Shown one piece after another: positions 717-57,387 of a stretch of DNA of 64,000 bases. The notes under the pieces are model-generated. The model saw only the letters and a list, made by a program, of their open reading frames with translations, did no database searches and had not been told where the DNA came from. The DNA lies in the NCBI GenBank assembly GCA_008632985.1, contig QPGO01000233.1, forward strand, positions 1 to 64,000, written 5' to 3'. The DNA comes from Psammoneis japonica. Its lineage: Eukaryota. The translations under genes and the position numbers were made by a program. Position 1 is the stretch's first letter. Every line of letters begins with the position of its first letter.

Positions 717-1256
717 TGTGACGAGGAAAAAACTGGTCAAAGTTTTTTAGTCATCACATTAAGACACGTATGTTTAAAGTGTCTGTTGACCCAAACAACA
801 GAAGAATCTGCAGGTGCATGTGGACGAAAACGCTGGTCAAAGTTTTTCAGCCATCACATCAAGAAAAATCTTCAGGTGTGGAGGAAAAACCGGTCAAAGT
901 GTTTTGGCCATCACATCAAGACACGAGTGTTTGACATGTCTGTTGATGGAAACAACAGAAAAATCTTCAGGTGTGGAGGAAAAAACTGGTCAAAGTTTTT
1001 CAGCCATCACATCAAGACACCAATGTTCAACATGTCTGTTGACGGAAACAACAGAAAAATCCTCAGGTGTGGAGGAAAAAATGGCCATCACATGAAGACA
1101 CGAATGTTTGACATGTCTGTTGATGGAAACAACAGAAAAATCTTCAGGTGTGGAGGAAAAAACCAGCCAAAGTTTTTCAGCCATCGCATCAAGACACGAA
1201 TGTTCAACATGTCTGTTGAAGGAAACAACAGAAAAATCTTCAGGTGTGGAGGAAAG
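717..1256. repeat. Tandem repeat, ~96-bp unit, about 5-6 imperfect copies
   Basis: The anchor GTGGAGGAAA recurs at about 878, 973, 1069, 1150 and 1246, within the unit ...CAGCCATCACATCAAGACAC...TGTCTGTTGATGGAAACAACAGAAAAATCTTCAGGT. Confidence 0.9.
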
Positions 1257-1261
1257 GTCTT

Positions 1262-1285
1262 TCTCTCTCTCTCTCTCTCTCTCTC
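1262..1285. repeat. (TC)n microsatellite
   Basis: Visible run of about 12 TC units. Confidence 0.95.
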
Positions 1286-2180
1286 ACAAAAGAACAAGTG
1301 AGCAAACAAACGATTGACAGCAATGGCGCCCAAGGGTGTGTGCAAGGACAGCGTGCAATGTTGACAACCCCAGATTTTGAGTGCGTGTCATCTTCCAGCT
1401 CGTCCCAGATGCCCCTCATGCCAAACTTTGACACATCATCTGTGGATCCTTTTGCCACTTCATCGTGGAACAAAAGTGACAAAGAGCAGCTTGCAGCTCA
1501 TGATCTGCCATCTGCTTCGACGCACAAATCCAGCGGCACCTCTTGTTTGACTTGGATTTTAACTCATGGAAAGTCAAGAACATGGAAAGGCCGTGGTGAC
1601 TTTTGAGGAAGCTTTGTGCATCTGCTTGACTCGTTGACGGGATCACGCCTTGGTGGCCAATTTGCGCAATGATGTGGGAGTTTGTCACACCCACTTGGGG
1701 AATGTTTGTGCTGCATTTTCCAATGCTTCAAGGGCACATGAAGTGCAACAAAATTTGGCTCAGAAGCAACAACCACAGGAAGCTGCTGTGGAGCAAGACA
1801 AGATGCAAATGGACACTGCCGGCACACTCTGCAATCATGTGAAGGTCTGCATTTGAAATGGACACAACACAAGGGAGACTCGCTGACGGCTTCTTGTTGG
1901 AATGGTCATGTGACACAGTCTTGGTCTTTTGTGAAGCGTTGGCCATTCAAAAAAAAATTGTCGCATCCATTGCTCCGTGACACAGCGCATTTGTCCCTGG
2001 GCAATTTGCAATGACAGCTTTCTGAGGAACAAAAGAGTCAATCAGGTGTGCATGCAGCCCCTTCTGTGGCTGATGCAGCTTCTTCTTGGCTCTGTCCCAA
2101 ACCTTCTTCACAACAAAAAATGCTGAATCTGAGCATGGCAAATCCAAAATCAGCTCATGATTGATCAACGGAGTTGTCAT

Positions 2181-4790
2181 TGACAAACATCTGAGATGGG
2201 GGGCACACTCCCTTGTGTTGGACAGACTGGCATGGATGGCATGGAGAGATCTGACAATCTCTTCTTTGCTCACTTTCTTTCTCATCTGGCGCACAATTGT
2301 CACTGTCCCAGACATCTGTCAGATTGTCCCAAATGCCGGCAATCCGCAAGGTTGTGAGCAGCAGCGCCATTCATCTTCCTCTGTGCTGCTGTGCTGCAAC
2401 ATCCATTGTGTGATTTGGTGACTTTTCTTCGTTGAAATTGCCATCATTGTCGCAGCTGTTTTTCACTCTTGATTTGTGATCACCACAACCACCGCAGAAC
2501 ACGCGCCAGAGCTCTGCACAGGAATTTGATTTTTTTCCGTGCAACCATGGTGAACAAAAATGCAAACGCCATCAATTTGACCAAGATCACCTCAACAATG
2601 GTCAAATTCAAGCTGCACCACCTCTCACCTGATGCCCACATTTTCCTGAATGCCCTTCATTTGGATGAGATCCCTGCTCCTGAAGATCTTCTGGATGGAT
2701 TTGCTCCTCAAGGCCTCAAGAGCAACACTTGCAACTCTCCATCATGAGATTGTTCATGACCTCGTCATTCCCCAAGCTGTGCTGACCAAAGATCTTGCGC
2801 ACATTGGACCACTCACAGACAAGGCTCCTCCATTTGTGGCTGCTCCTCAAGGTCATCAGGTTCATCTGAATCCTGCCAATCTTCAGAAGACTGTGATCAA
2901 AGCAATCTCAGAAGGTCACAACACCACAACGACATGTGTTGAGACTGTTCGTCTCCATTTCGTCCTGGTTTTTAGCACTGTGATTGTCAGGATGATGTCT
3001 TTGATGTCCCGCATCCAAACTTGTTGTCTGCCCCAAGTTCTTCACCTCTGCCATCTGCTGCTGCAGGCACAACCCCTGAAGATCTTGCCAAAGCATCGGC
3101 CACTCATTTGCCTGGTCCAAAAGAGTTTGAGCAAGCCATGACAAATGTGTTGAAGAGTGTTTCAAGCTCCAATGGATTTGTTGAGTCCAAGTTGTGCCCA
3201 GATCCTGCCTCCATTGCCAGCAGCTGCAACGCTGCTGTTGCATCTTGTGTTGAAGATGTGCTTGCTGTGGACATGTCGGATGGACCCTGCGGATGACAGT
3301 TCCTTGAATGTCAAGTCTGCCACATCTGTTGTGGAACCTGTGGGCAAGCCATCCACATGGGTGCTCGGGTGGACCCTGCGGATGCCAACTCCTTGAATGT
3401 CAAGTCTGCCATGTCTGTCATGGAACCTGCAGGTGAGCCATCTGCAGATGTTGATGCCAGATCCCTTGCAATTCCTGCCAAATTGGCAATGCTTCTTGCC
3501 AACATCCATGCCTGCCTGCTCCAGACCCCAAAGTTTTTTGTTTCTGGCCACTCCGTTGTTCCGTGCAAAGATGGCCACATTTGCCTCCAGGATGGAATGC
3601 CCCCCATTGCCAAGGTTGCACCCAACAAGCTGCTTGCAACATGTGTGCCACTGTCATCTGACACTTGCGGATGCCACCAGTGCTCTGTTGCTCATCAAGT
3701 TGATTTGCACTTGGATTTTTGGTTCGACTGTTGTCAATTTTAGACACACGCCGCCACCACTCCTTCTGTTGTCCAAACAAGACCAATGGAAGCAGGGCAG
3801 TTGTGAAAGTGGACCATGGAGTCTTGCTGCCTTCTGCCATCACATCTCTTTCCTCTGTTGTCAGGACCGTTGTTGTGTCTGTTTGTGCTTTTCATGGTGC
3901 TCTGGACCTGTCCACCATCGCTGATGATGATTCTTCATTTTCTGATCAAGGGAGGGAGCAACACCATGCAGAGGAAGTGCACAAGATTTACAATCACACC
4001 AACTCTTCCAGCACGTTGCCTCTTTCCTTCACTGTCAAGATCATTGTGGTGTTGAACAGCATTTTTCCTGGTGCTCCCAACCTGTCGACCATCCCTGACA
4101 ATGACCCTGTGATTTTTTGTCAGGGGAGGGATCCTGTGGTGAAGAGGAAGAATGCAAGGCTGTTGAGAATTCAACCTTCAACCAAGAAACCTTGCTTGAC
4201 CACCATGATTCAGCGCGGTGCTTGCTCACTGTGCATCGCTGTTCTTCCAACATTGAGCAATTTTACGATGTGCTTTGTTTGTCCAACATGTTTTTCAGGG
4301 GCAACACAAATGGTGGCAGAAGCACTGGCTTGTCATGTGGATTGCTGTTGCTTCATTTTCGCTGCATCATCTGCCACAGCACAACTCGCCAGAGTGTCCC
4401 ATTGCAGTCAATCATTTGTGGAATGACAAAGTTGTTCTTTGGTGCATGACTCAATTCATCCAAAAGATTTTTGTTGGGAAGCCTTTGACTTTTTTTTGTT
4501 GAAGGCCAATGCATCGATTGCGCGATGAATGTTTTTTGTTTCCAACATGCTCCTTGCTTGATGGGCCATCATGGTTGATTGTCACTGTGTTTTGCGAAAC
4601 AAGTCTTGGCCATTTCTTTTGGTCTTCTTCTTTGTTCTGCTGTTCTGGCCCTCTCTTTTTGTTTGGATTGTCTCTTTCTTTCTTGATGAGCACAGCATCA
4701 GCTCATCAGGGGAGGGTGACAGACATCCTGGATGGGGGCCACACTCCCTTGTGTCAGACAGACTGGTGTGGATGGCATGGAGAGATCTGT
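2181..4790 (+). mobile_element. Degenerate LTR-retroelement-like remnant (two LTR-like starts)
   Basis: A ~75-bp direct repeat begins TGACA at 2181 and 4717. The second copy is directly preceded by the polypurine tract AGGGGAGGG (4708-4716). The interior is too degenerate to assign domains. Confidence 0.4.
3281..3447. repeat. Two-copy ~89-bp tandem repeat with reciprocal CA/TG differences
   Basis: GGACCCTGCGGATG...CCTTGAATGTCAAGTCTGCC at 3282 and 3371. The copies differ by five CA<->TG swaps. Confidence 0.85.
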
Positions 4791-5759
4791 TGCAACCATT
4801 CTGCAGAATCTGAGACTCCGGTGAATCCTGGCATGGAATCTTCTGAAAATGAATTCTGTGGAACCAGACCTTGTGCCCATGTTTCGATTTGTGTGAATGA
4901 CGGACATTGAAGAATCCCTCTCACCAGATCACCAGAGCTCCTGTTTCTTGCCAGATTCTGAAGAATTGGCTGCTCGCTCAAGATGTGGCACCCTTGGCTC
5001 TCAGCCTCTGTTGCCTTTTTGCAGCACTTCTCTTGCTGCAATTCCATTGAGTTCATTGGTCAAAAGAGGAGAGCCTCTTTGTGTTGCTTCTTTTGCCACC
5101 ATGTCAGTTGCTGTCCTCCCCTCCTGCCCTGATGCCGATGCGTTCCAGCTCCAGGTGGGACCTTGCACTGCTGCACTGTGACATCAACAGTTTTTTGGAT
5201 CACGTCACATGTCGCGCACGCACATTTCTGCGTGTTGTGTTCTGCGAAATTGTTTCACACTCCCTGTTTTGCGAAGCCAAAGGCTTTCCATTTTCAACAT
5301 TCATGAGAACAAAAATGTGCTGGGTGTGTTTTTTGATGTCTGCAGAACACACCCGGGCAAACTGTTGATGATGTGCTCCAAGCATGAAGGAGGAGATGCG
5401 TTCATAAGATTGCCTCTTTTTCTGTTGGTGATCATTTGTATTTTCATTACAGTGCAAATTTGCTGCGGAGCTCGCACGTGGAATTCCACAGGCCCAATGT
5501 CACACGGAGCCCCACCTGGGGCTGGAACCCGTTTGCCACTGTTGTGACTTCTCCCGAGAAGGTCAGGAGCATTTTCATGGAGACCAAACACCAAGATGCC
5601 TTCAACAAGGCAGCATTTGGCATTGAGAATGATGACTTTGCCAGTGCTGTGATCCCACCAAAGTCCAAGCTCCTGCTTCAATCTGAGTGGGAGAAGAGGG
5701 TTTGGGCAGTGAAGCCCTGCATCAGCGAATGGCGATCAGTTGGCAAGAGGGTCTGGTTG

Positions 5760-6900
5760 CGGAAAAAGATGCAGAAGAGCCATCACCAGCCAATCCCCAC
5801 GGTGCCATGGGAGGAAATCTGACATCGGCTGCACTTGGAGTCATTAAAGGACTGGTGGGGCCCGCCATTTTGTGTCCACCACACGTCTTGGCCTTGACTG
5901 CTGTCGTGTTTTTGTTTTCCTCGGATTGCTTGTTCAAGAGTTGGGCTCTGGAAAATAAGAAGGAGCAGTCCATCAAGCCCATTCTCAAACACGAGGAAGA
6001 GCCACTGCAACCCAACAAGAAAAGTTGTCATGCTGACGTGTCCTGAATTGGCATGTTGTGCTCTGGGACCAACCGGCGAGAGCTTGGTCAAGCTGGGATT
6101 GGCCTTGGTGCAATCGGGAGTGTGCTTGACGCATTTGATTTTTGTCCCGCAAAACTTGCACTCGTCCTTTCTCCTGCTCTTTGGGTTGGACTGGAGCGCA
6201 CGATGGTGGTTGATTGCCATGGTGCTGATTCAAATACCCCTGTCGTGGATTCGTGATATTCGCAAGCTGACGCCTACCAACTTACTTGCCAATACGTTAA
6301 TACTGTATGGTTTACTGATTTGCTTGGGGTATGCTGTACGCCAAACCGTGGGAGGAGAACTAGTCTGGTATGAAGACATTTACAAGAGCGTGACCAGTCT
6401 AAGTCCTTATCGGGACTTATGGTATTTATTCATCGGAACAAGTGTAAGACAAAATGCAGGACTCAGTGCCTGGTACTGCCTTGCGGTCATATGCACCTTT
6501 CCACTCCAAAACTTCCCCTCTCTTCAAATTGCTTGTCATTCCATGACTGTCGCAGTAAAACACCGGTATCCCAGCCTATCTTCCGACAATTGGGTCAATA
6601 CGCGCGTGCTAACGTTGCTATCAACACGCAACTTTCAATCGGCTCTGTGTGTGTGCGTGTGTGTGTTTGTTCTCGATTGTCGCGGTATGCACCATGGATT
6701 CGCTAGACAAGGTGGTGAGTCTCAAGGGGACCATGCTGGGATGTCCAATAGCACTGGTCTTTCCGCCGCAGATTCACAATCGTCTAGATCCCAACATTAC
6801 ACCGTGGAGAACGTTCTTGAATAACGTCGTGTCGGGGATGGGTTTCATTGCAGTGGTCGTTGCATCCATAATCACCATTCTCACATGGAACAATAGATGA
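5760..6900 (+). pseudogene. Amino-acid transporter (Aa_trans/SLC36-38-like) pseudogene with a hypermutated 5' half
   Basis: Recognisable segments SAALGVIKGLVGPAIL, QSGVCLTHLIFVPQNL, QIPLSWIRDIRKLTPTNLLAN, WYLFIGTS|gtaag and SLDKVVSL..GCPIALVFPP. It is frameshifted and central helices appear to be missing. The true start is uncertain (possibly about 5450). Confidence 0.8.
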
Positions 6901-6931
6901 AACAGATGCTCGAGCAGATGTCCCTTTCTTT

Positions 6932-9900
6932 TTAACTGATAGAGACTTCATTGGACTTTAACGACTGGGCCTTGACGTGTTCATTGGATGCCTTGTCCGC
7001 TACGTCTTCATTGGATGCCTGTTTTGGTTCCGGCAACGACTCGCTAGAGTCACAAAGGGATCCTTTAGAGCCAAAAAGCGAGATTCGCTCGAACTCTTTC
7101 GAACTTCCTTGCAGGTCCTGCGACAAATGCTCAACTCTCTCCAAGCTGAGCCGTTTATGCATGGAAGAAGCTTTCTTGCTGAATCGCTGCCTGCCTTTTG
7201 AGTTGGTTCCAAAGGTGAGGCGTCGCCGAGAGGCAGATATGACGGAACCGTACTTGTCGCTGAGTTGCGTCACCTTCGCCTTTGCTCCCCATTCACGGTA
7301 AACTTTGTAAGCCTGGTCCAAGTAAGACGTTGCCCAGTCCCTGTCCCCCGGCGCTTAAAGAATGCACCAGCCAGTTCGAAAGCAAGGGCGGTGTCCTGGA
7401 GAAAACCAGACCTCCGAGCGGTGCGGATTGAGTTTTCGTACATTACTTTGATGGAATCCGTGTCGTCATTAGAGACTTGAATGGATGCCAGCTCGGCTTC
7501 CAGCAACGCCAGCTTCTGCAGGCAATTAACAGCCTGAGCCTTGGCCCATTTCTTCATCTGTGCGATGCACTTGAGCGCGTGGGCTTTGCTTTGGCCTCTT
7601 TCTCCAACTCAATTCGGTTCGCAGGAGCTCAAGAGACACGAGGCCATCGAAGAATACAAATACGGAATAAATGAAATGACCTTTCACGGCTTGCAATTGC
7701 CTCGAAAACCGTCTGCCATCTCCACGCCAACGCAATGTCTCCAAAGTAGTAGCCAAGCTGCAGGCGATGCAACCAGTATATCAACATTGATGGGATATCA
7801 TTTTTTTCATCGCAGCTTTTGAGAAAACTGTCTTCCTTCATGGCTTTTCCAGACAATTTCAAAGGATTTCGAGAGCGACCCATGAGATTCAAGACAAACT
7901 GGTGATAAGGAAGATTCCCATAGTAGACAGTCATTTGATTGTATTCTAGCATCTGGGCGCAATACGACTGAAAATCTTTTTCGAGCGGCTGAAATTACAA
8001 AGAGAAAAGACGACGACGACAGCAATTGATAAGAAATGGTGTCAGCTACGCACAAGTTGACAGATGAAAAAGGCCGGGCTTACTTCCAGGGGCAGACCGG
8101 AGTACAAATAGTTGTGGGTGTAGCTACTGGCACAGAGAATTGCATTCTCTATATCACCAGTTTCCATCCCAATGATGTATCCTTTCAGTAAGGGTTCGAG
8201 AGTGTCTTGAAGAGGGTTCTGCCACGGAAATATGAATGAATATGCCACATTAGCAACTCCCGCCTCGCATTCCCGTGCGCCGCGTTTTTCGAGAATGGAC
8301 AATGCAAGCTTTCCAAATCTTGATGCCTCACTCAATTTCCCAAGCGAGCACTGCACGACTCCATACTGAGTGAAGGCAAACGAAGACAGATTTGTCTCCC
8401 CGTTACGTAGCGTGTGTTTCATTGAACGAAGCAACAGAACAACAAACAAAGTACTTTTCTTCGACCAGAACGCGCATCGAGCAATCAAAATGATCGCCTT
8501 CATTGCGCTAATCTTGTGATGGTCCGTCATTTGTGGTAGAGAGAGGAGGTCGTCATCGTCTAACTTGCGCACCATTTTCTTCACTTTTATGATGTCACGT
8601 AAGACATGTAGCATAGACGGCCTCTCGGGTATGATTTCTCCCAGCTGGGAGAGTAGCTCAAGACCAATCTTAATAGCTTCATCAAACTTTCTCTGGTTAG
8701 CAGAGAGGGACTCTATGATGGCAAAATACGCAGGGACTTTATCGTCAAGAGATCGAGCATATGATAGTACCGTGTCTGACATGAGTCTGCTCAGTTCAAT
8801 GTTCCCATTTCTTAGCTCCATTTCAGCCGAAGCGCTATGTAGCTTCAAGTTCAAGTTGTACTCTTCGTTCCAACTGTTCTTCTGGTCTTTCAGCAGCGTA
8901 ATACCATACTGGAGGTATTCTGCTGCTGGCACAAAAGCGGATATGCCCATTGCAATCTCGGCGGCTTCTAAGTTCAGCTTGGCTAATTCTGTCTTGTCAT
9001 GGTCAGATGAGATGCACCTCGAACCAAGATTTAATTGATACGCAGCAATGAACAGCAACACCTCCTTTGATCCTTTGTATGAGGTACTGCTGTACCATAT
9101 TGTTTTACCAATCTCAAGATGTAACTTGTCCTTTTCGTCGCCGTCAGCCACGAGCGAATACGCGGCTTGTTGGATACGATCATGCGAGAACTGATATCTC
9201 TTGTTAGATACCTTTTCAATGAGTCCCTCATTTTCTGCCAAGCCGAGGGTTTTTATTATCTCTTCCTCCGAATTGTGTCCATCAGATTCCGCCATGTCTA
9301 GATGTTTGATGACGGGCACTAGGAGGTCAACGTCAAAAGTCGAAAAGAGGCATGCCGCAATCTTGAGAAGGCACTGCCCCTCAGAAGCAAGACGTTTGAT
9401 TCTTGCACAAACCACGTCGACGACGTTGTCTGAGGCATCCGTTTCTGCCACAATGCGATCAATATCCCAGCTCCAATCATAAGATATGAGAGAAAATGAA
9501 ATTAAACCATCGCACTGGAGCATGTCGAGGAACTGCAAGACAAAGAAAGGGTTACCATGAGTTCGACGATACACAAGATCCGACAGCGGTCGAATTGATG
9601 ATGGATCGTGTCTCATGAGGTCCGAAAGCATCTCGTTGACGGTTTCGAGGCTGAGATTAACCAGCGTGATTCGGTGAATTTCTTTTTGGCTTTCAATGTC
9701 CGTGAACGTCTTCGATACTGCGTGGTCCTCGTCCACTTCGTTTTCCCGGTAGGTGCCGATGAACAAAAAGTTCTTCAAGTTATCGAAGGTCGCCAACGCT
9801 TTTATTAGCTCCAATGAGGAAGCATCAGCCCATTGCAAGTCATCCAGAAACACTACAAGGGGCTGAAAATGCTCGCAAACTGCCTGAACAAACGATCGAA

Positions 9901-10414
9901 ACACAAAAAGAAGCCGATTGAAAGCCTCTGCGCTTCCTGAAACATGTGTGGAATTGCCCGGATCACCAATGATAGGTCGAAGTTCTGGAATTACATCTAT
10001 TAGCACTTGTCCTTCAGACCCGACAGCATTTCTGATTGCCTCGCTCGCTTGTTCTGTTTGTTCAGAATGGAGAATTTTGGTGCACAACTCGTTGAACGCA
10101 ACAGCTAATGCAGAGTATGGCTCCATGTTTCCAAAGTGGTCAAATTTCCCCGCTACAAACATTGCATTTTCTTCATCGATCTGATAACGAAAGTTCCGGA
10201 CGAGGCAACTCTTTCCTGTTCCTGAATATCCCGAAATTACCAGCACTTCGTTTGCCGCCGCTTCCAGGCTGACGTTAGCGTATACATTTTCAAGTGTTTG
10301 AAATTCTTTAGAACGCCCATAAAGCCGCAAACCGGTCAGATTAAGTTGCGTGGCAGTTGCAAATGATAGTGACGAATCCTTGGAACACGATGAAAAGGTC
10401 GCACTCGTACTCAT
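6932..10414 (-). CDS. STAND-class (AAA_16/COG3899-like) predicted ATPase with a helical C-terminal region
   Basis: LYGR motif, Walker A GYSGTGKS, Walker B VFLDDLQWAD, THGNPFF and FSHDRIQQAAY. Intron 8083-7989 (GT..AG). The last exon is broken by about three frameshifts near 7730, 7600 and 7335. Confidence 0.85.
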
Positions 10415-10842
10415 CGTTCTCTTTTCTTTCCAGGTATAAAACACTTTTGCTACTCTCGCAAAACACGCTTGCTACTCTCACAATTTTCAATTTTACCCGA
10501 GATGAACAAGAGGAAAGAGAAGACCGTGCGGTAAAACATTAATTTTGCCATGAACAATGGACAATGAAGAATAAGCAACGCTAGGTACAGTAGACTAACA
10601 CCCCTACCATGCGGCGGCGCCGCCCTCCGGAGAATAGTCGCTCGAGGCAATAGGAAATGCTTTGTTCATCTACATTATTTTGTCTATTTTTTCGTACAAC
10701 TATGTTAGTAAGACTCTTTTTGAGACTATGACAATGACTCAATGTTGTAATAAAGACTTGTATAAAACCATATTGCCCTCCAATTGCCTCAACAAATCCC
10801 GGTGACAACCGCAACAGAGGTGCACCTCTGACCCGCAAGTGG

Positions 10843-11523
10843 TCTGCACTGTATTCTTGACAAGGACTGACATAGACTCCAGTACAATCGACATCCGTAA
10901 AGGTGACAACCTTGAAATATGGATTGCTCTCTGCGATTTTCTTTATCCACTCATTGCACGACCCGCAGGGAGGGAGTGGATTCAAGTCCTAATTTGGTCG
11001 AGAGAATATAACTTAAGTTAGACGAAAAAAATCGGAGCTTCAAAGAAGTAAAGGCGGTTCAACCAATCTTACCTCTGAGGAATTTACAACAACCTTGCGC
11101 TTCTGTTGAGTCTTTTCATACGGATTTGAGTAGAGGCTAATGACACGCTTTGGCGTTATTGGTGGCGTCTTGTTGGGTGTCGAAGAAACCAGAGACATTG
11201 ATGGCGGCATATCAAAGGCAGGCGGAACTGACGCAGAAACGGCAGGTGAGAATCTGGGAGACTTGCGCACGGTAACAACATTCCTTCTGTCTTGAGGGAT
11301 TCTCGATTCGCTCTTGCTGCTGTCTGAGTCTTGCCGTGGGGCGTTTTCCACGACCCAGTCTTCTTCCCGCCCCGACCCTTCATCCTCTTGATTAGCATTG
11401 GTCTCTTCTTGAATGACGCTAGAGAAACTCTCCATACTTGAGGACCGTCCAATCGGATCACTTCGCGGTTTGACATCCGTCGATACCTTGTAGCACATCA
11501 ACGACTCGGACGATCCCGCACCT
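10843..11523 (-). pseudogene. Partial duplicate of the 3' end of the deaminase-like gene (16222-16906), including its last intron
   Basis: Near-identical to 16222-16906 at an offset of 5383. It encodes NPLPPCGSCNEW but lacks the CAE half, and the stop codon is lost. Confidence 0.9.
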
Positions 11524-16233: not shown

Positions 16234-18914
16234 CTATTCTTGACAGGGACTGACATAGACTCCAGTACAATCTGTGTCCGTGAAGGTAACAACCTTGAAA
16301 TATGGATTGCTCTCCGCAATTTTCTTTATCCACTCGTTGCACGACCCGCAGGGAGGGAGTGGATTCAAGTCCTAATTTGGTCGAGAGAATATGACTTAAG
16401 TTAGACGAAAAAAATCGGAGCTTCAAAGAAGTAAAGGCGGTTCAACCAATCTTACCTCTGAGGAATTTACAACAACCTTGCGCTTCTGTTGAGTCTTTTC
16501 ATACGGATTTGAGTAGAGGCTAATGACACGCTTTGGCGTTCCTGGTGGCGTCTTGTTGGGTGTCGAAGAAACCAGAGACATTGATGGCGGCATATCAAAG
16601 GCAGGCGGAACTGACGCAGAAACGGCAGGTGAGAATCTGGGAGACTTGCGCACGGTAACAACATTCCTTCTGTCTTGAGGGATTCTCGATTCGCTCTTGC
16701 TGCTGTCTGAGTCTTGCCGTGGGGCGTTTTCCACGACCCAGTCTTCTTCCCGCCCCGACCCTTCATCCTCTTGATTAGCATTGGTCTCTTCTTGAATGAC
16801 GCTAGAGAAACTCTCCATACTTGAGGACCGTCCAATCGGATCACTTCGCGGTTTGAAATCCGCCGTTGCCTTGTAGCACACCAACGACTCGGACGATCCC
16901 GCACCTCTACTGTCCTTTGGCAGTGAAACGGACAGGACAGCAATCATTCTCAAATCCTGACGTTTTAGACCGGGATTTGCCGCAAGAGCAGTTCCAATAA
17001 CATTGCGTTCTGCACAAAGTGATCCCGTCGGCATGCTCACTTCCATGTTGGTGCCACGATAGAGCTTCTTCTGCTTGTCGTCTGTCTCTACTAACAGCAC
17101 CGCCAACACAGGCTTTCTCGTTTTGCGCAACCAAAATTTGACCAAATCAGGAGAGATGGATTGACAGAATTCTAGCCGAAAGTTGCGCATTTCCGCTACC
17201 ATCAATTTTAAATTGTCACTGTCATCCATTTTGTCCTTGTCCAATGACGACGCATCAATTGCAGGCACACCCTCCATGTCCTCAAAAGAGTGCACCTCGA
17301 TATCGTCTTCGCAAATCTTGGTATCATGCCAGAAGGTCTTGAGTTGCCACACATGAAAGTAGGTAGGACGGTAACTCTTGAGAGCTGATTGAATGGCATG
17401 AGTACGGGCGTGAGAGCCATCGGCAAAACTGAGCGTCATAGCAAACGATTGTTTCCAGTCTGGCGAAAATGGATTTGCGGTTGCTGTTATTGATTTGGCA
17501 CGACTACTCTCGTCGGGATATAGCTCATTCCGTGCATGTGCATCGCGGTAGGATTCAATGCACGGCAAGAGTTCGCGGTTGGCAAAGCTCATGTTCTCGT
17601 CGTATCGAAATATGTTGGTGTCAGAATGAATCCTTGTAAGTGGTAGTACAAACAATGTGAGGCAAAATTTTTCGATTGATTGTGTGTAGAAAGAGATAGC
17701 ATCATTGACACTCACCTTACGACAGTCACGTCAGGGTACAATTCATGGACAAAGTGTTCCATCAATTCGGCACACGCCCTCGTCGAGTTTCCGCTGACCG
17801 AATGAGTCCAGTTTCTCGGAGTCCCTACTCCACTCACCAACACCACGACCTTTTTAATTGCAATCCCATACTCTTTGGTTTTCATTTGACCATGCCATTT
17901 TGGCAACAGCGTGGCTAGTAGCGGAAAGAACACGTGATTTAGCTTGAAGTCTTGGTGTCCTGCGACTCGTGGCACATCGCGACCCCGGAACCGCAGACCG
18001 TCCTTATCCGCCTCGACAGGATTTGAGAGGCAAAACCCCGTTGGAATCATGGACCGTCGTGAAGGAGTCGGTTGCACAATGGGGTACCGCAGTGTTTGTG
18101 GGGAACGTTCGAATTTGGGAAAGGAAACAATTTCTCTGCGATTGGAAGTCTGAAGCGATTTGAGGATGCGAGTCGAATACAAATCAAATGCAGAGAAGCG
18201 TGGTTGACAGAGACTGTAATCTTCATCGTTCTCGTTTATTTTGGGAAGGTCCACACTGAGCACGAGATCCGTATGAGAGACATTGTGCACCAGCATTTCC
18301 AAATACCTTCCGGAAGAACTTGTTGTAGGTTGACTGGGAGGCTCGCTGAGCATTCTCTCTTCTCGAGGAATATCTCTTATTGTTGAGCGTCTCTTTTCAT
18401 TCAGTTCATCTTTTTCCTCGTCGTTTTCGTCATTTGGTCTCTTATGCATTTCTTCCACAGACAAAACATGCAAAAATAAAAGCGCAATGGGTGTAAGCTC
18501 CCACCACCTGAATCTTGGAGATCCTAGCTCGACCCACCAAGTGGAGAACACGAAAATCATGGGTACATTGATTGGAGATGTGACCTCTTTCCACGCCCTA
18601 TACAATGCACTGCTGCTCCACGCAAACAACTCCTTTATCGCCGGGTGCTCTTGAATCTTGTGGCGAATCTGTATCAATGCCTTTTGCTGTTCACGCTTTT
18701 GTTCTGAATCATTGTAAAGTGCATAGCAGTATCCAAACGTCCCACAAGTCAAACCCGCAAATACCGAGTACAAGAGCGGCAGCAAATGACCCTTTTGCTT
18801 GTTGTCGCTCATCTCCTCACAGTGAGAAGCAGAACACCTACAGAACAACAGAATGTTGAAAGGCGCAAACACAAGAAGAGCAAAAACTGCTCTTCGTCTC
18901 GTTGAATGGGGCAT
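16234..18914 (-). CDS. Large cytidine-deaminase-like (Zn-dependent CDA fold) protein
   Basis: YRGTNMEVSMPTGSLCAERN (CAE motif) and DLNPLPPCGSCNEW (PCxxC). Introns 17715-17633 and 16455-16372, stop at 16234. The start may instead be the ATG at 18812 (MSDNK). Confidence 0.8.
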
Positions 18915-19059: not shown

Positions 19060-21360
19060 ACTGCAAATGTGAATGTGCACGGTCCCCCACAGTGCAGGTT
19101 TAAACATAAAATTGCACTGAAACCCCCAAGCAATCCACAAATCTGAGAAGACTGCCAGGTCTTGCCTCGGGTGCATTCCACGTGCTGTCACGCCACTTTT
19201 TTCAGTGGATTCACTGCACGCTCATTCCCAGAGTGATCTGTTGCCACAGCAGCAGACACAAGAACTTCTTTGCTTGTGAACTTTCGATCACTCCTGGCAA
19301 AGAAAGGCTGCAACAGAAGCTGTCCCCCGAACCTCCAAGCAGCAAGAACACTCCTGCAGCCCTTGTCGAGCATGTTTGCAAACTTTGGTGGCGATGAGCT
19401 GTCTTTTTTCTGAAACTCTTCTTGCATTGGCAGCAAATTGCTCCTCTCAAAATAATCTGCATCAGACACCCCCCAAGCCACAGTTCCCAACCTCCCAGCC
19501 ATCCGCAAAGCTGCAGAAATGTGGCACCTTTTGCAACGTTGCCTCCACAATGCAGTGAGCAGGTCAGTCGCTGCAAATCCAAGTCTCTGGGCTTGCCCAT
19601 AAAATCAACATTTGTGTTGTCCCACATTGTGACATGCTTGTTTTTGCACTGCTCTTTCCATTTCTCCTTTCGCAGTTCCATGTCTTCCGCGTGTGTGAGA
19701 AACCTTGGCCAAGACTGAGCCGCTGCCAACACCAGTTTTGACTTAGCCCGGAACATGTCACAGAGGACACACTGATTCATGCCATGTGCTGCCTGTGCAT
19801 CGATCCACCGCACGCACGAATGACCCCATGCCATTTCAAAATGGAGGAGCCACTCTTCAAACCAAGTCAAAGACGACTGTGTTTTCATCATCAAATCAAT
19901 GTTGCCATTGCAAACAACAGCAACAAAACACAGAAGGAGCACCATTGACAAAAAACCGGTTCGACGCTGCACTTCAGCATCTTTTGTCGCTTGTGGCAGA
20001 ATGATGGGTTTTTGGTGCAAAGTTTTGCTTTTTGTTTCAGTCGCCCTGCGTGGTTGCTTGCGAGGCGGCGACGAGAGATGCACATTGAGATTAGCAGCTT
20101 TGAGCACAGATGGATTGACAAGAGTTTTTACAGCCGCATGACCCCCGTCAGATGCCTCAGCAGTTTGTTGCAGGGCAAGGTCACCGCCACCATTTTCCTT
20201 GGCATCCTCCAGCACTTGCACCAACATTCTGTTGGTTCCAAGTCCTTTTGACAATGTCACGGGTTTAGCCTCATGACTTTTGGAACCGTTGTTGTCCGGG
20301 GCAAGGAAGCGTACAGTCTCCTTTGCCGCCACCATCTTTCCCTTGATGCATTTCACACAACTGAACGGTTTGGAAATTGTCACCAGCGGGTGGTCGTGGC
20401 ACATCTGCTGAAAATCTCTGGTTGATTGACGTCAATGTTTCCGAACGTCACGTTTCCGAACATCACGATGACATCATCAGACATGTCCATCCGTCACCCA
20501 ATGCCGCCGTGGCTTCTTCGACAAGGGTGAGGCAGCCAGGAACCCGAGCTCTCTGAATCCCAGATCTGCTCATTCAACTTGATTTAGCAGCTAGACCCTC
20601 CCAGGATGCAATTGGCAGATTTTGTTTCCTGGAAGCGCACTGTGCAAACAGGCATCAAAACAACGACATGTGCTGGTGGAAAGAGAGAGTTTTTGGGGCC
20701 TCATCGTGTCGTGCAGCAGAGGAATTGGGGAACTGTCACAACTGAAAAGGCTGTCATGCACTCCATCAGCTGATGGACAGAAACAAATGTGGAGCTGTGC
20801 CAGCTTTTTCTGCAGGTGCTTGGTCGAAGCATTTTGGCTTGCACTCGTCAAATTGGAGAAAAGCGCACTGGGGTCGTCAGAGACGCACGCCGCACACCCC
20901 AGGGACATGAGTGCCCAGTCGAACAGGATGTGTCACACGGTGCAAGCTCAATGTTTGATTCATGACATGGTGTTTTAATCATTTGGCTTAGAAACTCCCA
21001 TGGTGACTTTTGACACGGCATTCCCTTTGACCGACCAAGAAAGCTGGTGTGTGGCTTCTTCTTTCTCCCACCTCTTCCTCCCTCCGAGGCACAGCACACA
21101 GCAACACACCATCCGAGCACTTGTCATTTGCATTGGACATGCTGAAGCATCCATTGCACAGCACAAACCCCACACATTCACCTGTGTAAGTCATGCTAAA
21201 TGCATTGGGTTGTGTGGCATGAGTGCATGCATGCAAGTGCCATTTTTGTGTCCCTGGCGCACCCCCACACCCGCCAGTTTTCGGAGAGACAAACAAACAC
21301 GACTCCAACACGACTGAAAAAGATGGTGAGTTTTTCGTTGGCCGGCCGGGGGGCGGTTTG
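19060..21360. other. TpA/CpG-depleted hypermutated block B (DNA-transposon relic)
   Basis: TA and CG are depleted between two normal-composition genes. The block contains a transposase relic. Confidence 0.85.
19188..20404 (-). pseudogene. DDE transposase relic (PIF/Harbinger-ISL2EU-like, DDE_Tnp_4 type)
   Basis: Motifs WDNTNV, RLT[C]SL[HC]GGNVAKG, LDKG[C]RS and TD[H]SGNERAV match the D..DxGY..ER layout. Frameshift near 19470. Confidence 0.75.
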
Positions 21361-21759
21361 GGTTACGGTACCTCACGCACGGGCACTAGTACTGTATGAA
21401 TACACGGGACAAAACGGTATCTTCGTTCTCTGTTCGATTACCGCTTTAAATACACTTCTACCTTACACCTTAACAGTAGAGCAACAAAGCAACGCAGCGA
21501 AGACAGATGGGTGCGGGTTGAGCAGAACGAACGTTCGAGAGAAGAAACACTGAGACAGACAAAGGACAAAGAGCAAACAGCCATTGAAGTGTTTTTGTAG
21601 TCACCCACGGATCCTTCATCAAAATTGCTTCTGCCTGAAAGACTGACTGCGGGCTGCTGCGACGACTCTCTGCTGACTCGAATTCGTAGTGTACAACGAA
21701 ACTGCGTTGCCGTTTGGACTTAAAAGTGAATCTAGCGAAATACCGGTAATCTGGTAGCC

Positions 21760-26889: not shown

Positions 26890-29800
26890 GGAAGAAACTG
26901 CTTTCATGTTAGTCCATAAATTAGCACTTCCTGCACGTGCACCAACATGCTTCATTCATTCACTGCAAGAAACATGATGGCTTTCAACAGCACTCCGCAT
27001 GTTGGCAGGCCATTTCGGGGGCCCGATCTCAACTCACGCGACCACAAGTTTTCCATTGCTCTCGACATTGTCTCTTCTCGTTGGAACCCATGACACTCTA
27101 GAGAGAGAGAGACTCTAGAAGTGTCCACTTAGAGAAACTGCACGCGCTTCCACTCTCTAGCCACTGCAGCAGCTTAGAGGCCCTCTCCAGTGAAGAGTGG
27201 AGAGAGAGTCTCTGCCAGGGCCCCAGCGATGAATCCATCATGTGCCGTCCAACCCAATGTGATCTCACAATGAAAGCACCGAGGATCATCTGAAAGCCCA
27301 ATGAAATGGTTCCATGCTTCATTCCGGCCTGTTTAGAGTCATCAGTGTGTCACCTGCCAAGCTCTCTCATTGTTTGCATCAATGCAACCAAGAAGCGGCA
27401 AATGAGAAAAGACATCAAACATGAGAGAAGGGTGCAGGTTTTGAGGATGGGTTTCCTGAGGATGGCAACAAAGACAAAATGGGTGAGGGATGGAAAATGT
27501 TGATGTGCACGGTGGCTTGCCATTTTTGGGCATGCCCAACTCCAACAATGGGAAGCTGGACAGCACCATTGTTGCTGCTGCGTGCAAAGCGACAAGAGAT
27601 TGTTGGCTGGAAAAATCAAGGAATGCCATCAAGAATGCAAACAGATGGAACAATGGTTGGCAATTCTTGGTGATGAAAATGAAGACCTGCTGGCAAAAGA
27701 GATTGAGACATTGCCCCACAAGTTGCAGCAGTTGGGGCCACACAGACAGGTGTGCCAAGCAAAACACCAGCACGGTTTGGCCAAACACTTGTTGAACCAT
27801 GCATTTTTGAAAGAGATTGGCTTCATTTGTCGTGTCAAGTGCAGGGCACAAACGGACACTCAGGTGGTTCATGGCCGAAGATTGTTGTGGATGAGTGCAC
27901 AACTTCAGAACAATGGCAGCTGCGTGAACATCCCATTCTAGACAACAACTCATTTTGTTGGCCCTGCTTGGACACTCACCTCTTCTTGCTTGTCTCACTT
28001 TCTGTGACTCCACCCATGTGTGGGGAGGACAAACCATGTGCTGCTTCTTTCATGTGATGAACATGGTTGCATGGTGTGTCAGCAGGGTGGAATGCAGTGC
28101 TGATTGAGTCAATTGGGGGGTCAGAGGGTGAGATGGTGGGGAGCAACATTGCAAAACATTTGAGGTTCAACCCCAGGAGACATGTGCAGAATTTTTGAAG
28201 AAAAGGAACACACAGAGAGCTGTGTTGAGTCAAGCACAAGTTCGCCCATCATGTCAGCCAACAATTGTCACACCTGTGACTTTAATTGTGAAGCATCCTG
28301 TGCCAAACCTTGTGGCACCACAACAAAATGGACTGTGCTGCAGCCCCCCAAGACCAGAGGCAAACAAAAGTGCACAACAAATTGGGGGGCGACTTGCACT
28401 GGACTTCTTGCCACAGTTGCAGCTCTCTTTGTGTGACTTGCAGGGGCAAGAGACAATGGCAAAACAAACAGCTGCACACATGCCATGTGGATGATGGTGT
28501 GCAGAGAAGCAATGCATCAGTCAGCATCAGCAGGGCTCTCACCACATCTGCAACTGATGAAGGAGATGACATTGCAAGTGAAAGAAAACGACAAAAAAGT
28601 GGCACAACAATGAAGTGAGAGACAGAAACATGATTGTGCTGGAGAGCTGCTGCAAGAAGAAGAGGACTTTGTTTGGGTGGAAAAAATTTCTAAAAAGGCC
28701 ACAAAATGCCATGTCAGCAGAGTGGCAACAGCGGCATTGTCTGAGCTCAATGTGCTGCAAATCAACAGAGAGTGAGCATGATGGGAAATGTCAAAGGACA
28801 AGGTGCACAGGGGAATGGATTGCACAGGAGGAGGGGTTGGCACTGGGGCATGCAAAGTGAACCTGCATTGACAATGCAGCAAGCCAGCATCACTCCCCAA
28901 ACCAAATGTGGCATCACCCACACTGCAGCCAGCACCAACATGTCAGGAAAATGTGAGGCAAGAACCTGCACATGTGGTGGAAACTGTGCAGAGGAGGACA
29001 GACCCACATGGATCAATTGGGCCCAACTCAAATTGCTCCCCCCCCCCACATGCAGTTTGTGCACACCATGTTGCAGTTTGAAAAGAACTCCAGCAGCAAG
29101 GAACAGCGGGCTGAGCGTGCTGTGTTGCCAGCTTGGTCAAACCCGGTTGTTGACCCCAGCAGCTTGATTTGAAAGTCTCGGGCTTGCACAAGCACTGCAC
29201 AGCAGCAACAACCTTGCCAAGAACAAACACCATCAATTTTTCTGAGCACCAAGCATGGCACCAACACCCCAACCCTCCTGGGAGACTGTGATGTGAGCCA
29301 AAAAAGTGCCCTTCTTTTTGCAAGCCAGGGTGACACTGACTCAAATTGTGCTTGTGCCAAGATGCCAACACCAAGCTCATCAGAGCTTGTAAAGACAGCT
29401 CCGGAACAGCTCCTGTGGAGAAACTTGGAGAGCTTTTTTGTTTCCAATGCATTTGGAAGTGTGTGATCCTTTTGCAGTGGAAATGCACTGCTCCATGTGT
29501 TGGCGATGTTGTTTGACGCCACACCTTGGCAGCTGTTTGAAAGCTGCAAGGCAGCAAAGATTTTTTTGCGGTGCAAAAGCCAAACAGTGGACACACCATC
29601 CTCTGCACATCATGTGGCTGCTGCACTGGCAGAGGCCCAGTGTTTTAGCACACCAGCAGATGGCAGGCAAAGCAAGTTGATGGAGAACGAAAAGGTGGTC
29701 AGAGGAATTGAGCTGTCACTTGTCAGTTGCATCAAGCTAAATGACATGTGCATCAGCCATGCGGTGCTTCTGAAATCCTCAGCAGTTCTTTTTCCTGTGA

Positions 29801-29980
29801 CACATCGATGTTTTGACAGGGAACGAAAGGCTGATCAGATGGAGGAATGGAACCGTCACTCGTCAGTTGCATCACTCAAATGACATTTGCATCAGCCATG
29901 CGGTGCTCATGAAATCTTCGGCAGTTCTTTTCCTGTGACACATCGATGTTTTTGGAAACCAAATGTTTTGCTCAAGATGA
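26890..29980. other. TpA/CpG-depleted hypermutated block C
   Basis: Starts immediately after the MYND stop codon. Residual TA is mostly in TAA/TAG/TTA/CTA contexts. No recognisable intact ORF. Confidence 0.85.
29713..29952. repeat. ~100-bp direct repeat with a 140-bp period at the edge of block C
   Basis: GTCAGTTGCATCA...GCATCAGCCATGCGGTGCT...TCCTGTGACACATCGATGTTTT occurs twice. Confidence 0.85.
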
Positions 29981-30072
29981 ATTATAAAAGCAGAATAAAA
30001 TAGTGCTTGAAAGCTAAATTATGTTGGACCTACTGTCTTTATTCTCCTAACTAATGTTTTGTGGCACAAACT

Positions 30073-30738
30073 CTACTCAGCAGGAGCCGCAGCGGAAGCC
30101 GCTGCAGAAGCCGATCCAGAAGCTGCAGCAGCTGATTCTTCAGGAGCCTGTGCCTCCGCATCAGGCAAGAGGGCTCCAGCCTTCTCCATCAACTCCTTAG
30201 CTTCTTCAGGAATCTCGACATCACCTTCGACAATCTCCGCTATCGTTTCCTTTCCGTAGGCAGCCACGTTGGTGTCATGGACCTCCCAAATGACGTTGTT
30301 CTCCAGTTGAACGTTGATCATGGCGCCCTTGGTAAATACGTAGACATAGGAATAGCCCGTGCCCTTGGCGAGCTCGGCTTGCAACTCTCGACCAACCGGG
30401 CCGGCAGCGAATCCCGCCGTTGCGCCGACCTTCAATTTGAAATCGGACTCGTACATGCGCTCCGTCGCCATCTTGCCAAGAACAATCACCATTATTTTCT
30501 TCTGAGCACCAATCGTGGCGCCAACTCCCCAACCCTCCTGGGAGACTGCGATGGGAGCCGAAAAGGTACCGTCCTTTTTGCGAGCCAGCATAACGCCCAA
30601 TCCACCACTGCCAGAGATGCCAAGGCCAAGCTCACCAGAGCTTGCCAAGATGACTCCTGAACAGGTCTTGTAGAGATCCTTGTCGAGCTTTTGTGCGTGT
30701 TCGATGCACTCAGAAGCGGCGGTAATGTACTTCTCCAT
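30073..30738 (-). CDS. SYLF/Ysc84-like domain protein
   Basis: GLGISGSGGLGVMLARK.DGTFSAP, GWGVGATIGAQ, AGFAAGPVGR and YSYVYVFTKG..NVAAYG are typical of the SYLF (Ysc84/SH3YL1) domain. Confidence 0.85.
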   Translation of the reverse strand: MEKYITAASECIEHAQKLDKDLYKTCSGVILASSGELGLGISGSGGLGVMLARKKDGTFSAPIAVSQEGWGVGATIGAQKKIMVIVLGKMATERMYESDFKLKVGATAGFAAGPVGRELQAELAKGTGYSYVYVFTKGAMINVQLENNVIWEVHDTNVAAYGKETIAEIVEGDVEIPEEAKELMEKAGALLPDAEAQAPEESAAAASGSASAAASAAAPAE

Positions 30739-31000
30739 GTTGACGATTGAGCGGTTTTGGCAGCAGGCAAAAGATTTTTTTGCGTGAGAGTTGGAAGCTA
30801 AGAAGAGATACTGTACTGTAGAGATGAATGATGAAGTACCGTTGGCAAAAAAAATGACAACAACAAGAAAGATCGCAAGAAAAGACCGTTATTTACTATT
30901 ACTATCATACACGTTGTAAGATATGTATTTCGATTTAAATCGCGCGAACGTTAAACTTTTCAAATTGCCCTTTGGATCTAATTTATCGATACTATACTTA

Positions 31001-43795: not shown

Positions 43796-44039
43796 GAGGA
43801 AGTGGCCTCTTTGCGTCCGTCCCGCAGCTCTCCAATTGCCGCAGTACAAAATTTTTATTAAGTGAAGCCTAATCTGAGATGTTTGCTGCCGCATGAAGTC
43901 TTTCCATTTCTCTACGTAGTCTCGAGTAAAATGAAACTGAATGACTGAAATATAGTGTGTGTAAATGGAATTATGGTGCTTCAAGGAGCTCTTTGATCAA
44001 AGCCAAGAATCTGTTGTCAACGGAGGGAGCTGGAGTAGC

Positions 44040-51957: not shown

Positions 51958-52778
51958 CCCAAGTCGTCTTTCCCCCCAACTAGAGGAAAGTAGGCGTTGG
52001 CGATTATGTTTTCAAGCCGTCCGCCACTGCACTAGAAGTCATAACTATGTCACAATGTACCGGTCCCGCTCTAGCTAGAGAAAGGAGACAGAGTCAAAGT
52101 ATTGTTGTTTTGCACTGGCTACGATGTAGAATAAGAAAAAAAAATAGACCTAAAGGTTTTATCAAATGACAGTGATGCAGCTTCGCTTACAGTAGTTGTT
52201 TCATTCAAGATTTTAGCTTACAGTGTTTTTGCAGCATGTACAACAAGCAATGAGGACTGAGATGAGGCGAGCGTTCCATGAAGTTAGACGGGACTCATTC
52301 AGTCGCGTGTGCGCATCATCACACTGAACGAACATACGGTACTTGTACACACAACACACCTACCGGTACCTACTAAGGTTACCTACTTCTACCATGACAG
52401 AATTGGAGCGGCTGATTAGATAGACTATTGCCGAACCTTTCAACAATACCAACACTATCTACTCTAGTCTTTACCATCATATAGAAACAACTCATGTTGC
52501 GTTTTTTGAAGGTAAGCGGCCAATTGTAAGATGAAAAAAGGATTTTGTATTGACACCACGATTCTGCTGTGATTTATTTGTATTGCTCCTTTATGTCACT
52601 ATCTCACTCCTTTTATTTGATACTTTCGTTTCAAATACAAACAGACAGAGTGTTTAGACCATAGCAACAGTTTGAACAGGCAACAACGGCTGATAGTTTC
52701 GCATCGGCATTAACACCTTTTCGTTTCAATACATTGTTTTCTTCCTTGTTTCGGAACGTGGCTGTGGCGTGTCCTACG

Positions 52779-53069
52779 TGCCGAATATCACGGTCATCTA
52801 TATTCATTCGTATATTCATTCGTGGGTGTCAACCTGGTGTCAAAAGTGTCAAAAGGATGTCAACGATGACACTTTCTAGAAACCTCTTCTCCTTTCTCGA
52901 TACATCTCGGTGCCTCTCGAAAGATTGTTTCTTTATATTTCTACGCGGTTTCTTAGTATTAATTCTACGAGATTTCGGAGTAGCCGAATCTCTTTCATTT
53001 CTTCTCACAACATTAGCAACAGTCAACTTTACAACGCTACTTTATACTGTTACTTGGCGCCACTTGGCA
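52779..53069 (+). repeat. 5' LTR
   Basis: Direct repeat of 57388-57678 at an offset of 4609. Confidence 0.97.
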
Positions 53070-53142
53070 TAGTAAATTTACTCCCAAACACTTATTCATC
53101 TCTCTTGAGATATATCTACCGATCATATTGTCCTGACCAGAC

Positions 53143-57366: not shown

Positions 57367-57387
57367 CGTCTCAATTGGGGAAGCGAG

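Follow-up and report, generated by a model that had tools for sequence, protein, structure and literature searches.

The one description to date of DNA hypermutation directed specifically at the dinucleotide TpA comes from a 2026 preprint on the chlorarachniophyte Bigelowiella natans, where the mutations are restricted to TpA in integrated DNA of nucleocytoplasmic large DNA viruses (NCLDV) and virophages (Mettrop et al., bioRxiv 10.64898/2026.01.13.699255). Across two integrated viral regions, that preprint counts 231 de novo mutations, of which 230 were A>G or T>C, all 230 on TpA; TpA-poor coding sequences were enriched for DDE endonuclease and reverse-transcriptase domains, and adenine deamination at 5'-TA by an ADAT2-like enzyme was proposed. 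The words 'CpG', 'border', 'flank', 'diatom' and 'stramenopile' have zero occurrences in the text of the preprint. Full-text literature searches returned no report of TpA-directed hypermutation, or of hypermutation resembling fungal repeat-induced point mutation (RIP), for diatoms. Here we describe a window of 64,000 nucleotides (nt) from Psammoneis japonica (positions 1 to 64,000 of contig QPGO01000233.1, forward strand), nuclear-type eukaryotic DNA with zero N, in which a copy of a transporter gene of the Aa_trans family abuts a TpA-depleted block of repeat DNA and carries the end of the depletion within its own sequence. We consider it probable that in-place, domain-limited TpA editing, together with CpG decay, of silenced repeat DNA spilled over into this flanking gene.

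The depletion is a property of five blocks, which were compared with the rest of the sequence by dinucleotide profiles over the whole window. In these blocks TA is nearly gone and CG is low, and TG and CA stand at about twice their expected frequency. The blocks, to which no strand applies, are as follows (fractions of TA and CG where given).

775-6234, block A: TA 0.0019, CG 0.0208; poor in TA and CG, rich in TG and CA
19107-21364, block B: hypermutated relic of a Harbinger/PIF-type transposon
26922-29983, block C: TA 0.0042, CG 0.0144
30999-38660, block D: TA 0.0027, CG 0.0064
about 44000-46440, block E: TA 0.0033, CG 0.0086; left and right borders both sharp

Outside the blocks the TA fraction is 0.0406 and the CG fraction 0.0583. 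The sum of TA and CG is 0.0178 within the five blocks versus 0.0990 outside, the sum of TG and CA is 0.2205 versus 0.1438, and all four pyrimidine-purine steps together are unchanged (0.238 versus 0.243). The loss of TA and CG is thus matched by the gain of TG and CA, which is the mass balance expected if each converts by one transition. Base composition is the same inside and outside (A 0.250 versus 0.263, G+C about equal). With the rate outside the blocks as expectation, block A holds 10 TA over 776-6234 where 221.6 were expected (Poisson P 5e-80). TA is uniformly 0.002-0.006 across the blocks, CG varies from 0.006 to 0.035, and TpA loss is more complete than CpG loss in every block and also in the part of the gene copy that belongs to block A. 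A runs test on the five blocks found no strand-coordinated clusters of TG versus CA beyond background (z -1.2 to +0.2); TG and CA are interspersed without such runs, indicating that both strands were hit many times. Because they lack TAA and TAG stops, the TA-free blocks read as many open reading frames (ORFs) that overlap one another in all six frames, are 100-400 codons long, contain no Tyr and have Cys and His in excess. Gene prediction is at risk here, as such blocks yield Tyr-free false 'proteins'. The border at 6235 inside the gene is no exception, since all ten borders of the five blocks are equally sharp; at the left border of block D, for example, 30900-30999 still has 14 TA and the sequence beyond has none. 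At the other end of block A, a tandem or nested array of direct repeats (716-1255, copies 78-83% identical) straddles the left edge, and the first 775 nt of the window already have a TA observed/expected ratio of 0.27 with normal CG.

Block A ends within the Aa_trans gene copy, in which three stretches can be told apart.

5721-6234, plus strand: mutated half, with 2 TA, 19 CG and 0 Tyr; likeness to a second version of the locus begins at 5721
6132-6235, no strand: border interval, from the last proven conversion (6132, Tyr>His) to the first retained TA (6235), with none between
6235-6897, plus strand: unmutated half, with 36 TA versus 26.9 expected

For the mutated half 20.9 TA were expected (P 2e-7). 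Past the border TA is back at 6235, 6257, 6275 and onward. The same step is seen in the protein: neither gene piece inside the block has a Tyr (0 of 60 and 0 of 68 residues), and 6 of the 71 residues directly past the border are Tyr. The original prediction, drawn from the letters of the window, was that a host transporter gene had been caught half-mutated, with mutation spreading from repeats into coding sequence that is not part of a transposon and stopping at a sharp border. The peptides that it quoted are present: ILCPPH at 5873-5878 (TGT CCA), LTCPELACCALG with TGT at 6039, 6054 and 6057, and CLTHLIF with CAT at 6132, followed past the border by the return of Tyr codons and TA in a frame reading ILYG, GYA, WYEDIY, PY and WY. 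The sharp stop holds as a change from 2 TA over 5721-6234 to 20 in the 211 nt that follow; it is qualified by the conversion of 2 of about 68 TA sites past the border, and it may mark either where the process ended or where two molecules were joined. As for the spread, the adjoining high-copy repeat agrees with it, but what was called a host gene is a broken copy of which an unbroken version exists.

The direction of change was read from an alignment of 120 diatom homologues, using columns that are at least 70% conserved. The window departs from the consensus at 22 of 86 such columns inside the block and at 17 of 101 outside. Single TA>TG/CA or CG>TG/CA steps account for 9 of the 22 departures inside and for 0 of the 17 outside (Fisher P 0.0025), and the difference is kept (P 0.0009) when five doubtful inside columns, lying in a poorly aligned linker or past a frame change, are omitted (5945, 5981, 5993, 5996 and 6035). 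The nine steps, each of TA or CG type at a conserved column, are the following.

5792, plus strand: Asp>Asn
5831, plus strand: Val>Ala
5873, plus strand: Tyr>Cys
5876, plus strand: Leu>Pro
5900, plus strand: Thr>Ala
6039, plus strand: Tyr>Cys
6054, plus strand: Tyr>Cys
6057, plus strand: Arg>Cys
6132, plus strand: Tyr>His

Tyr is the sole residue with TA in all of its codons. At columns with a Tyr consensus, 0 of 5 keep Tyr inside the block (Cys three times, His and Phe once each) and 2 of 2 keep it outside (6306 and 6474). The family consensus that the prediction had used proved correct: over 113-120 homologues its six quoted columns are Tyr in 97%, Leu in 99%, Tyr in 99%, Tyr in 75%, Arg in 96% and Tyr in 100%, and the Cys, His and Pro residues of the window occur at these places in 0-1%. 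Homologues of the transporter copy number 249 at E <=0.001 among 700 candidates and 330 in an exhaustive library; all the named Aa_trans homologues are from diatoms, with best identities of 62-66% (up to 64% among the 249), which places the source among the diatoms or their close relatives.

That the copy belongs to the Aa_trans family is indicated by a match of 6030-6446 to the Pfam profile (PF01490; E 1.4e-11, 44.2 bits against a cut-off of 25.6), and 6679-6897 gives a second match under the cut-off (E 0.0014, 17.8 bits). The pieces of the gene were placed by tblastn with four full-length homologues and by alignment.

5729-5962, plus strand: piece 1, homologue residues about 109-194, without 12 residues at 5886-5889
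6018-6446, plus strand: piece 2, residues about 211-354, in a frame that differs from piece 1 (tblastn and Pfam)
6446-6473, plus strand: site of a deletion of about 76 codons, homologue residues about 355-430 gone (tblastn)
6474-6545, plus strand: piece 3, residues 431-454 (tblastn)
6661-6891, plus strand: piece 4, residues 479-555, in a third frame (tblastn)

The frame shifts near 6023 and again near a (GT)n run at 6640-6677, so that no single uninterrupted frame covers the whole domain, and the N-terminal part of about 108 residues was not found by tblastn with the four full-length homologues. The window copy is thus a truncated, frameshifted pseudogene, with breaks to the left as well as to the right of the border.

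The ancestral letters were supplied by a second version of the locus. Contigs from two public sequencing runs of one sample, X1 and X2, were aligned over 3000-9000, and the second version is given by a 4303-nt X2 contig (record 9) together with the matching X1 contigs. Upstream of 5721 it is unlike the window. From there to 6445 it has 35 differences (9 over 5721-5889, 9 over 5886-6015 and 17 over 6024-6445), followed by 13 over 6473-7988 and 0 over 8084-9000. It holds the 36 nt that the window lacks at 5886, and the contig table gives 32 further letters between 5889 and 5886. At 6015-6024 it has 46 letters for the 8 of the window, a net gain of 38 that restores a single frame, and at 6445-6473 record 9 has 228 letters where the window has 27. 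The second version is therefore an unbroken gene.

Individual letters were compared for the differences listed, which are 40 of 568 differing places and include 17 of the 35 that record 9 has in 5721-6445. Among them, the second version carries TA or CG where the window has TG or CA at 8 of 14 places inside the border and at 2 of 16 outside (P 0.019), so that here, too, substitution classes differ between the two sides. The inside places are TA in the second version at 5755, 5759, 5784, 6055 and 6132 and CG at 5792, 5972 and 6057; the other listed inside differences are one A>G (6108) and 5 transversions. Outside, the 16 listed include TA>CA at 6377 and 7489 and 2 changes in the opposite direction. 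The changes TAT to TGT, CTA to CCA, TAT to CAT and CGT to TGT that had been predicted are supported in this direction by the homologue columns, and the second version directly shows TAT at 6055, CGT at 6057 and TAT at 6132, the codons that had been proposed as ancestral.

Homologues and second version together give ten TA>TG/CA conversions in 5721-6234 (5755, 5759, 5784, 5831, 5873, 5876, 5900, 6039, 6055 and 6132) and three CG>TG/CA conversions (5792, 5972 and 6057). TA sites converted versus retained are 10 versus 2 in 5721-6234 and 2 versus 66 in 6235-7988 (P 2.5e-9); for CG sites the counts are 3 versus 19 inside and 0 versus 91 outside (P 0.007). The change in the mutated half is therefore specific, taking 10 of 12 known TA sites (about 83%) and 3 of 22 CG sites (14%). 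With TpA near saturation and CpG conversions sparse, the two processes are separable, and the comparison of blocks, with TA uniform and CG variable, agrees. Among the 13 differences over 6473-7988, AT>GC changes outnumber GC>AT changes by 6 to 1, and at 6725, 6731 and 6853 the window has the derived state by the family consensus; these differences may be a weak tail of the process, relaxed constraint or the boundary of a haplotype block. Record 9 is also without 95 nt at 7989-8083, with GT..AG ends on the minus strand, and may be a spliced cDNA or an intron-less allele.

The reads also bear on whether the TA-free sequence is real and on how it is joined to its surroundings. Short-read contigs match block A with 0 other letters at 3000-3308 and 2 at 4626-4904, and the TGTTGT of the window at 6055/6057 is seen in short-read contigs at a depth of 69.6. 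X1 shows the letters of the window at 6055, 6057 and 6122; at 11 of the 14 listed inside places (5755-5824, 5972, 6099-6108 and 6132) it has the letters of the other version only, which reflects missing cover and is neutral. Collinearity is kept from the mutated half through the unmutated half to a convergent neighbouring gene, including the 95-nt GT..AG intron of the latter. This neighbour (6935-10471, minus strand) is a large AAA_16 (STAND-like) ATPase gene, interrupted by the intron at 7989-8083. In the window its 3' part is split among three ORFs of differing frame (6935-7354, 7273-7608 and 7632-7994), and the window copy may also be damaged or may have further introns.

Directly upstream of the gene copy lies the repeat from which mutation could have spread.

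5010-5612, no strand: very high-copy repeat, with an X1 summed contig depth of 43,524-69,821 and numerous rearranged joints

The summed depth in X1 is 200-2,600 over 3000-5000, and a single-copy contig has about 60. By read depth, block A is repeat DNA. The X1 contigs aligned to 3000-9000, mostly repeat copies, show transitions at 439 places versus transversions at 125. A profile scan found no Pfam domain in the repeat at 5010-5612, and the block A ORF at 3704-4423 has zero homologues at E 0.001. A match to Csm4_C was discarded as spurious (22.2 bits, under the cut-off of 25.9).

The same direction of change is found elsewhere in the window, in the transposase relic of block B and in a fragment of block C that can be compared with its intact source.

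19214-20431, minus strand: Harbinger/PIF relic ORF in block B, with 40 homologues, 2 of them carrying the DDE domain PF13359

This ORF has 0 Tyr in 406 residues versus 3.3% in its homologues, and conserved Tyr is replaced by Cys three times and by His once. In block C, 29213-29440 is a 78%-identical copy of part (30472-30695) of an intact Ysc84 gene 1 kb away; the fragment has TG or CA at 4 of 4 TA and 6 of 7 CG of the gene, and the intact source copy is unmutated. The Ysc84-domain gene (30076-30888, minus strand) sits in a 1-kb island of normal composition (29983-30999) between blocks C and D, and either island border is no more than about 100 nt from the ORF. Other repeated sequences are spared. 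A 672-nt duplication of 97% identity keeps 25 and 22 TA in its copies. At 52778-57678 lies an apparently intact Ty3/gypsy element with a 1409-codon ORF (reverse transcriptase, RNase H and integrase) and 292-nt long terminal repeats (LTRs) that are 99% identical, 2 of their 3 differences being TA versus CA/TG; this element is undepleted in TA or CG (CG observed/expected 1.4-1.7). From the 672-nt duplicates and the LTR pair, which keep their TA, it follows that sequence duplication alone does not attract the process.

These observations would be accounted for if the host hypermutates silenced repeat or foreign DNA, so that an A:T>G:C transition, on one strand or the other, turns nearly every TpA into TpG or CpA. 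We suggest that the loss of TpA would be enzymatic, either by adenine deamination at 5'-TA or by a mutagenic modification of thymine at TpA; as TA is self-complementary, sequence alone cannot separate the two. CpG would become TpG or CpA more slowly, as expected for decay of methylated CpG through deamination of 5-methylcytosine (5mC). The repeat-rich block abuts the truncated Aa_trans copy at 5721, and the process would have run about 514 nt into the gene copy, on chromosomal DNA in place, ending within 100 nt (6132-6235). Action in place is suggested by the register of the mutated half, which is kept both with the unmutated part that follows it and with the convergent neighbour and its intron. 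The extent of mutation may be set by a domain of silencing or chromatin that spreads a short way from the repeat.

Several observations weigh against this explanation. Among the aligned contigs and reads none is seen to bridge 6235 with the letters of the window on both sides, and a junction of two molecules is possible. Damage to the gene copy lies to the left and to the right of the border (deletions of 36, 38 and 201 nt and two frame changes), so that its history is more complex than one spill-over. Of the 35 differences to the second version in 5721-6445 only 17 are listed, and 5 of the 14 listed inside are transversions. Furthermore, 0 of 202 block ORFs (52, and 150 of 171 small ones) match a transposon or viral Pfam family, with none recognisable in A, C, D and E, so that the label 'foreign DNA' rests on the depth of block A and on block B.

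The hypermutation could accordingly be real and the border something else, namely the endpoint of a crossover or gene conversion, a haplotype switch or a chimera introduced during assembly. The reads contain two versions of the locus or perhaps more, the depths at adjacent places being about 63, 127 and 171, and divergence falls in steps, from about 5-7% (5721-6015) to 0.9% (6473-7988) and 0 (8084-9000), as haplotype recombination would give. However, the right half of the window differs from the unbroken version by a 201-nt deletion, a frame change and 13 substitutions of its own, several of which are seen in X1 at single-copy depths of about 50-60. This excludes a simple switch to an intact allele, and the equal sharpness of ten block borders favours a property of the process. 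We regard a junction as possible but rather unlikely. We are more doubtful of a RIP-like process triggered by duplication, in which 5721-6234 would be part of a repeated unit, for example a gene fragment captured and amplified by the repeat. There is indeed a second copy of the gene, and block C holds a mutated duplicate of the Ysc84 fragment; diatoms also encode DNMT4 enzymes, of unknown function, that are related to fungal RID (PMC9998398). Yet the stretch shared with the second version, longer than 3.7 kb, starts at 5721, continues past 9000 and is mutated only in its first 514 nt, and the depth of 184-353 over 5613-6215 is similar to the 135-513 over 6216-9000, which does not suggest an amplified unit. 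The 672-nt and LTR duplicates are undepleted; RIP strikes both members of a pair, but the Ysc84 fragment has an unmutated source. In B. natans, moreover, the target is single-copy (bioRxiv 10.64898/2026.01.13.699255). A trigger by duplication therefore seems improbable.

Editing before integration, in which an ADAR- or APOBEC-like enzyme acted on mobile or viral nucleic acid (RNA, cDNA or an episome) that was afterwards inserted and took the gene fragment along, would explain the sharp block borders trivially, and ADAR is stated to prefer a 5' U in the Discussion of the preprint. Such an insert would have needed a precise landing by homology, because the mutated part is collinear and in register with its continuation and neighbour; in addition, conversions occur interspersed on both strands without strand-coordinated runs. 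We consider this very improbable. It is hardly credible that no mutational process was at work and that the signature comes from sequencing or base calling of modified DNA, or from selection or codon bias, although the two pyrimidine-purine steps that are their own complement, TA and CG, are plausible sites of DNA modification. Independent short-read contigs agree with the window and reproduce the TA-free sequence, indicating real DNA and ruling out an effect of modified bases on base calling. Codon bias or selection on the protein is ruled out by the replacement of invariant residues alongside deletions and frameshifts. N6-methyladenine is placed at ApT, the wrong dinucleotide, and a reading based on it was set aside.

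The window also encodes a deaminase. At 16240-17730 (minus strand) lies an LmjF36.5940-like gene with a cytidine deaminase (CDA) fold (Pfam PF14421, E 2.6e-38), with the motifs CAE near 17016 and PCGSC near 16353 and an intron between them. Its distance is 1.4 kb to block B and 10 kb to block A. The 672-nt, 97%-identical copy of the gene's 3' part at 10584-11523 (minus strand) keeps PCGSC, lacks CAE and stands directly upstream of the AAA_16 ATPase ORF (8045-10471, minus strand). The LmjF36.5940-like family has been suggested to edit mRNA or to mutagenise DNA (Iyer et al. 2011, PMC3239186). By its proximity, this gene is a candidate for the hypermutation enzyme.

New here are the lineage, the saturation of the depletion, its coupling with CpG decay and the fact that a copy of a host gene was hit collaterally, with an edge that can be measured. 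One gene copy with mutated and unmutated halves is its own control and the unbroken second version gives the ancestral letters, which makes the locus a natural experiment. It offers a direct reading of the direction and specificity of the change, of the separability of TpA editing from CpG decay and of an edge width under 100 nt, and it indicates that the process can damage host genes collaterally. The interval 6132-6235 is a place where maps of chromatin or small RNA could show what determines the boundary. As a saturated end state in a diatom-like genome, the locus suggests that the process may be widespread among marine protists. We hold the chances about evenly balanced that diatoms, like Bigelowiella, have an enzymatic TpA-erasing defence that would act on silenced repeats in place, to saturation and within chromatin-like domains with edges under 100 nt, and that could overrun and destroy an adjacent host allele. 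If so, TpA editing would be a genome defence widespread in the supergroup of stramenopiles, alveolates and Rhizaria (SAR) and distinct from RIP, and the candidate enzymes would include deaminases of the CDA fold, ADAT2-like or of another kind, among them the one encoded by the LmjF36.5940-like gene 10 kb away.

Compared with known systems, the blocks share with RIP of Neurospora and other fungi the character of a genome defence, with transitions in a fixed dinucleotide context, blocks of skewed composition and damage to neighbouring genes. RIP can leak into adjacent single-copy DNA, and it depends on an enzyme of RID/DNMT type and on a premeiotic stage. The type of mutation is different: RIP changes C to T at CpA, creates TpA and leaves AT-rich DNA, whereas here TpA is destroyed and base composition is unchanged. 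Nor is a duplication trigger with both copies mutated found, since RIP needs duplication and hits both copies, and here duplicates of 97-99% identity are untouched and the Ysc84 source is intact. Transposons are methylated in diatoms (PMC9998398), and the decay of methylated CpG would match the CG>TG/CA changes and their TG/CA excess, and the range of CG from 0.006 to 0.035 fits a slow, age-dependent process, but it cannot account for the loss of TpA. The chemistry resembles that of ADAR, APOBEC and ADAT2 deaminases (A>G and C>T), ADAR and TadA-type enzymes preferring a 5' U or T. The substrates of these systems are RNA, cDNA or single-stranded DNA, before replication or in its course; the change here, in contrast, would be in chromosomal DNA beside a repeat, in place, on both strands and near saturation. 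An ADAT2 enzyme of amphioxus, BjADAT2, is reported to deaminate both A and C in DNA (PMC10354150).

The closest likeness is to B. natans. The transition described there, A:T>G:C at TpA giving TpG or CpA on either strand, is found here both in the ten conversions of 5721-6234 and in the block-wide balance, and the footprint is likewise TpA depletion with CpA and TpG enrichment. In B. natans the changes are confined to delimited regions of foreign or mobile origin; here there are five sharply bordered blocks, of which B is a Harbinger-type relic and A is high-copy by read depth, C, D and E showed no recognisable origin in the Pfam scans, and an intact Ty3/gypsy element is undepleted. Block B, as a relic of a DDE (Harbinger-type) transposon, corresponds to the DDE-enriched TpA-poor sequences of that genome. 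The two cases differ in lineage, B. natans belonging to Rhizaria and the present DNA to a diatom-like stramenopile, and in target, which here consists of repeats and transposon relics with no viral genes recognised. De novo events are seen there, and the end state alone is seen here. The NCLDV region of B. natans retains a TA fraction of 0.033, whereas depletion here is saturated at 0.002-0.006; CpG, which is not part of the signature described there, is also lost in the blocks, and the change extends into a host gene copy with a border of at most 100 nt.

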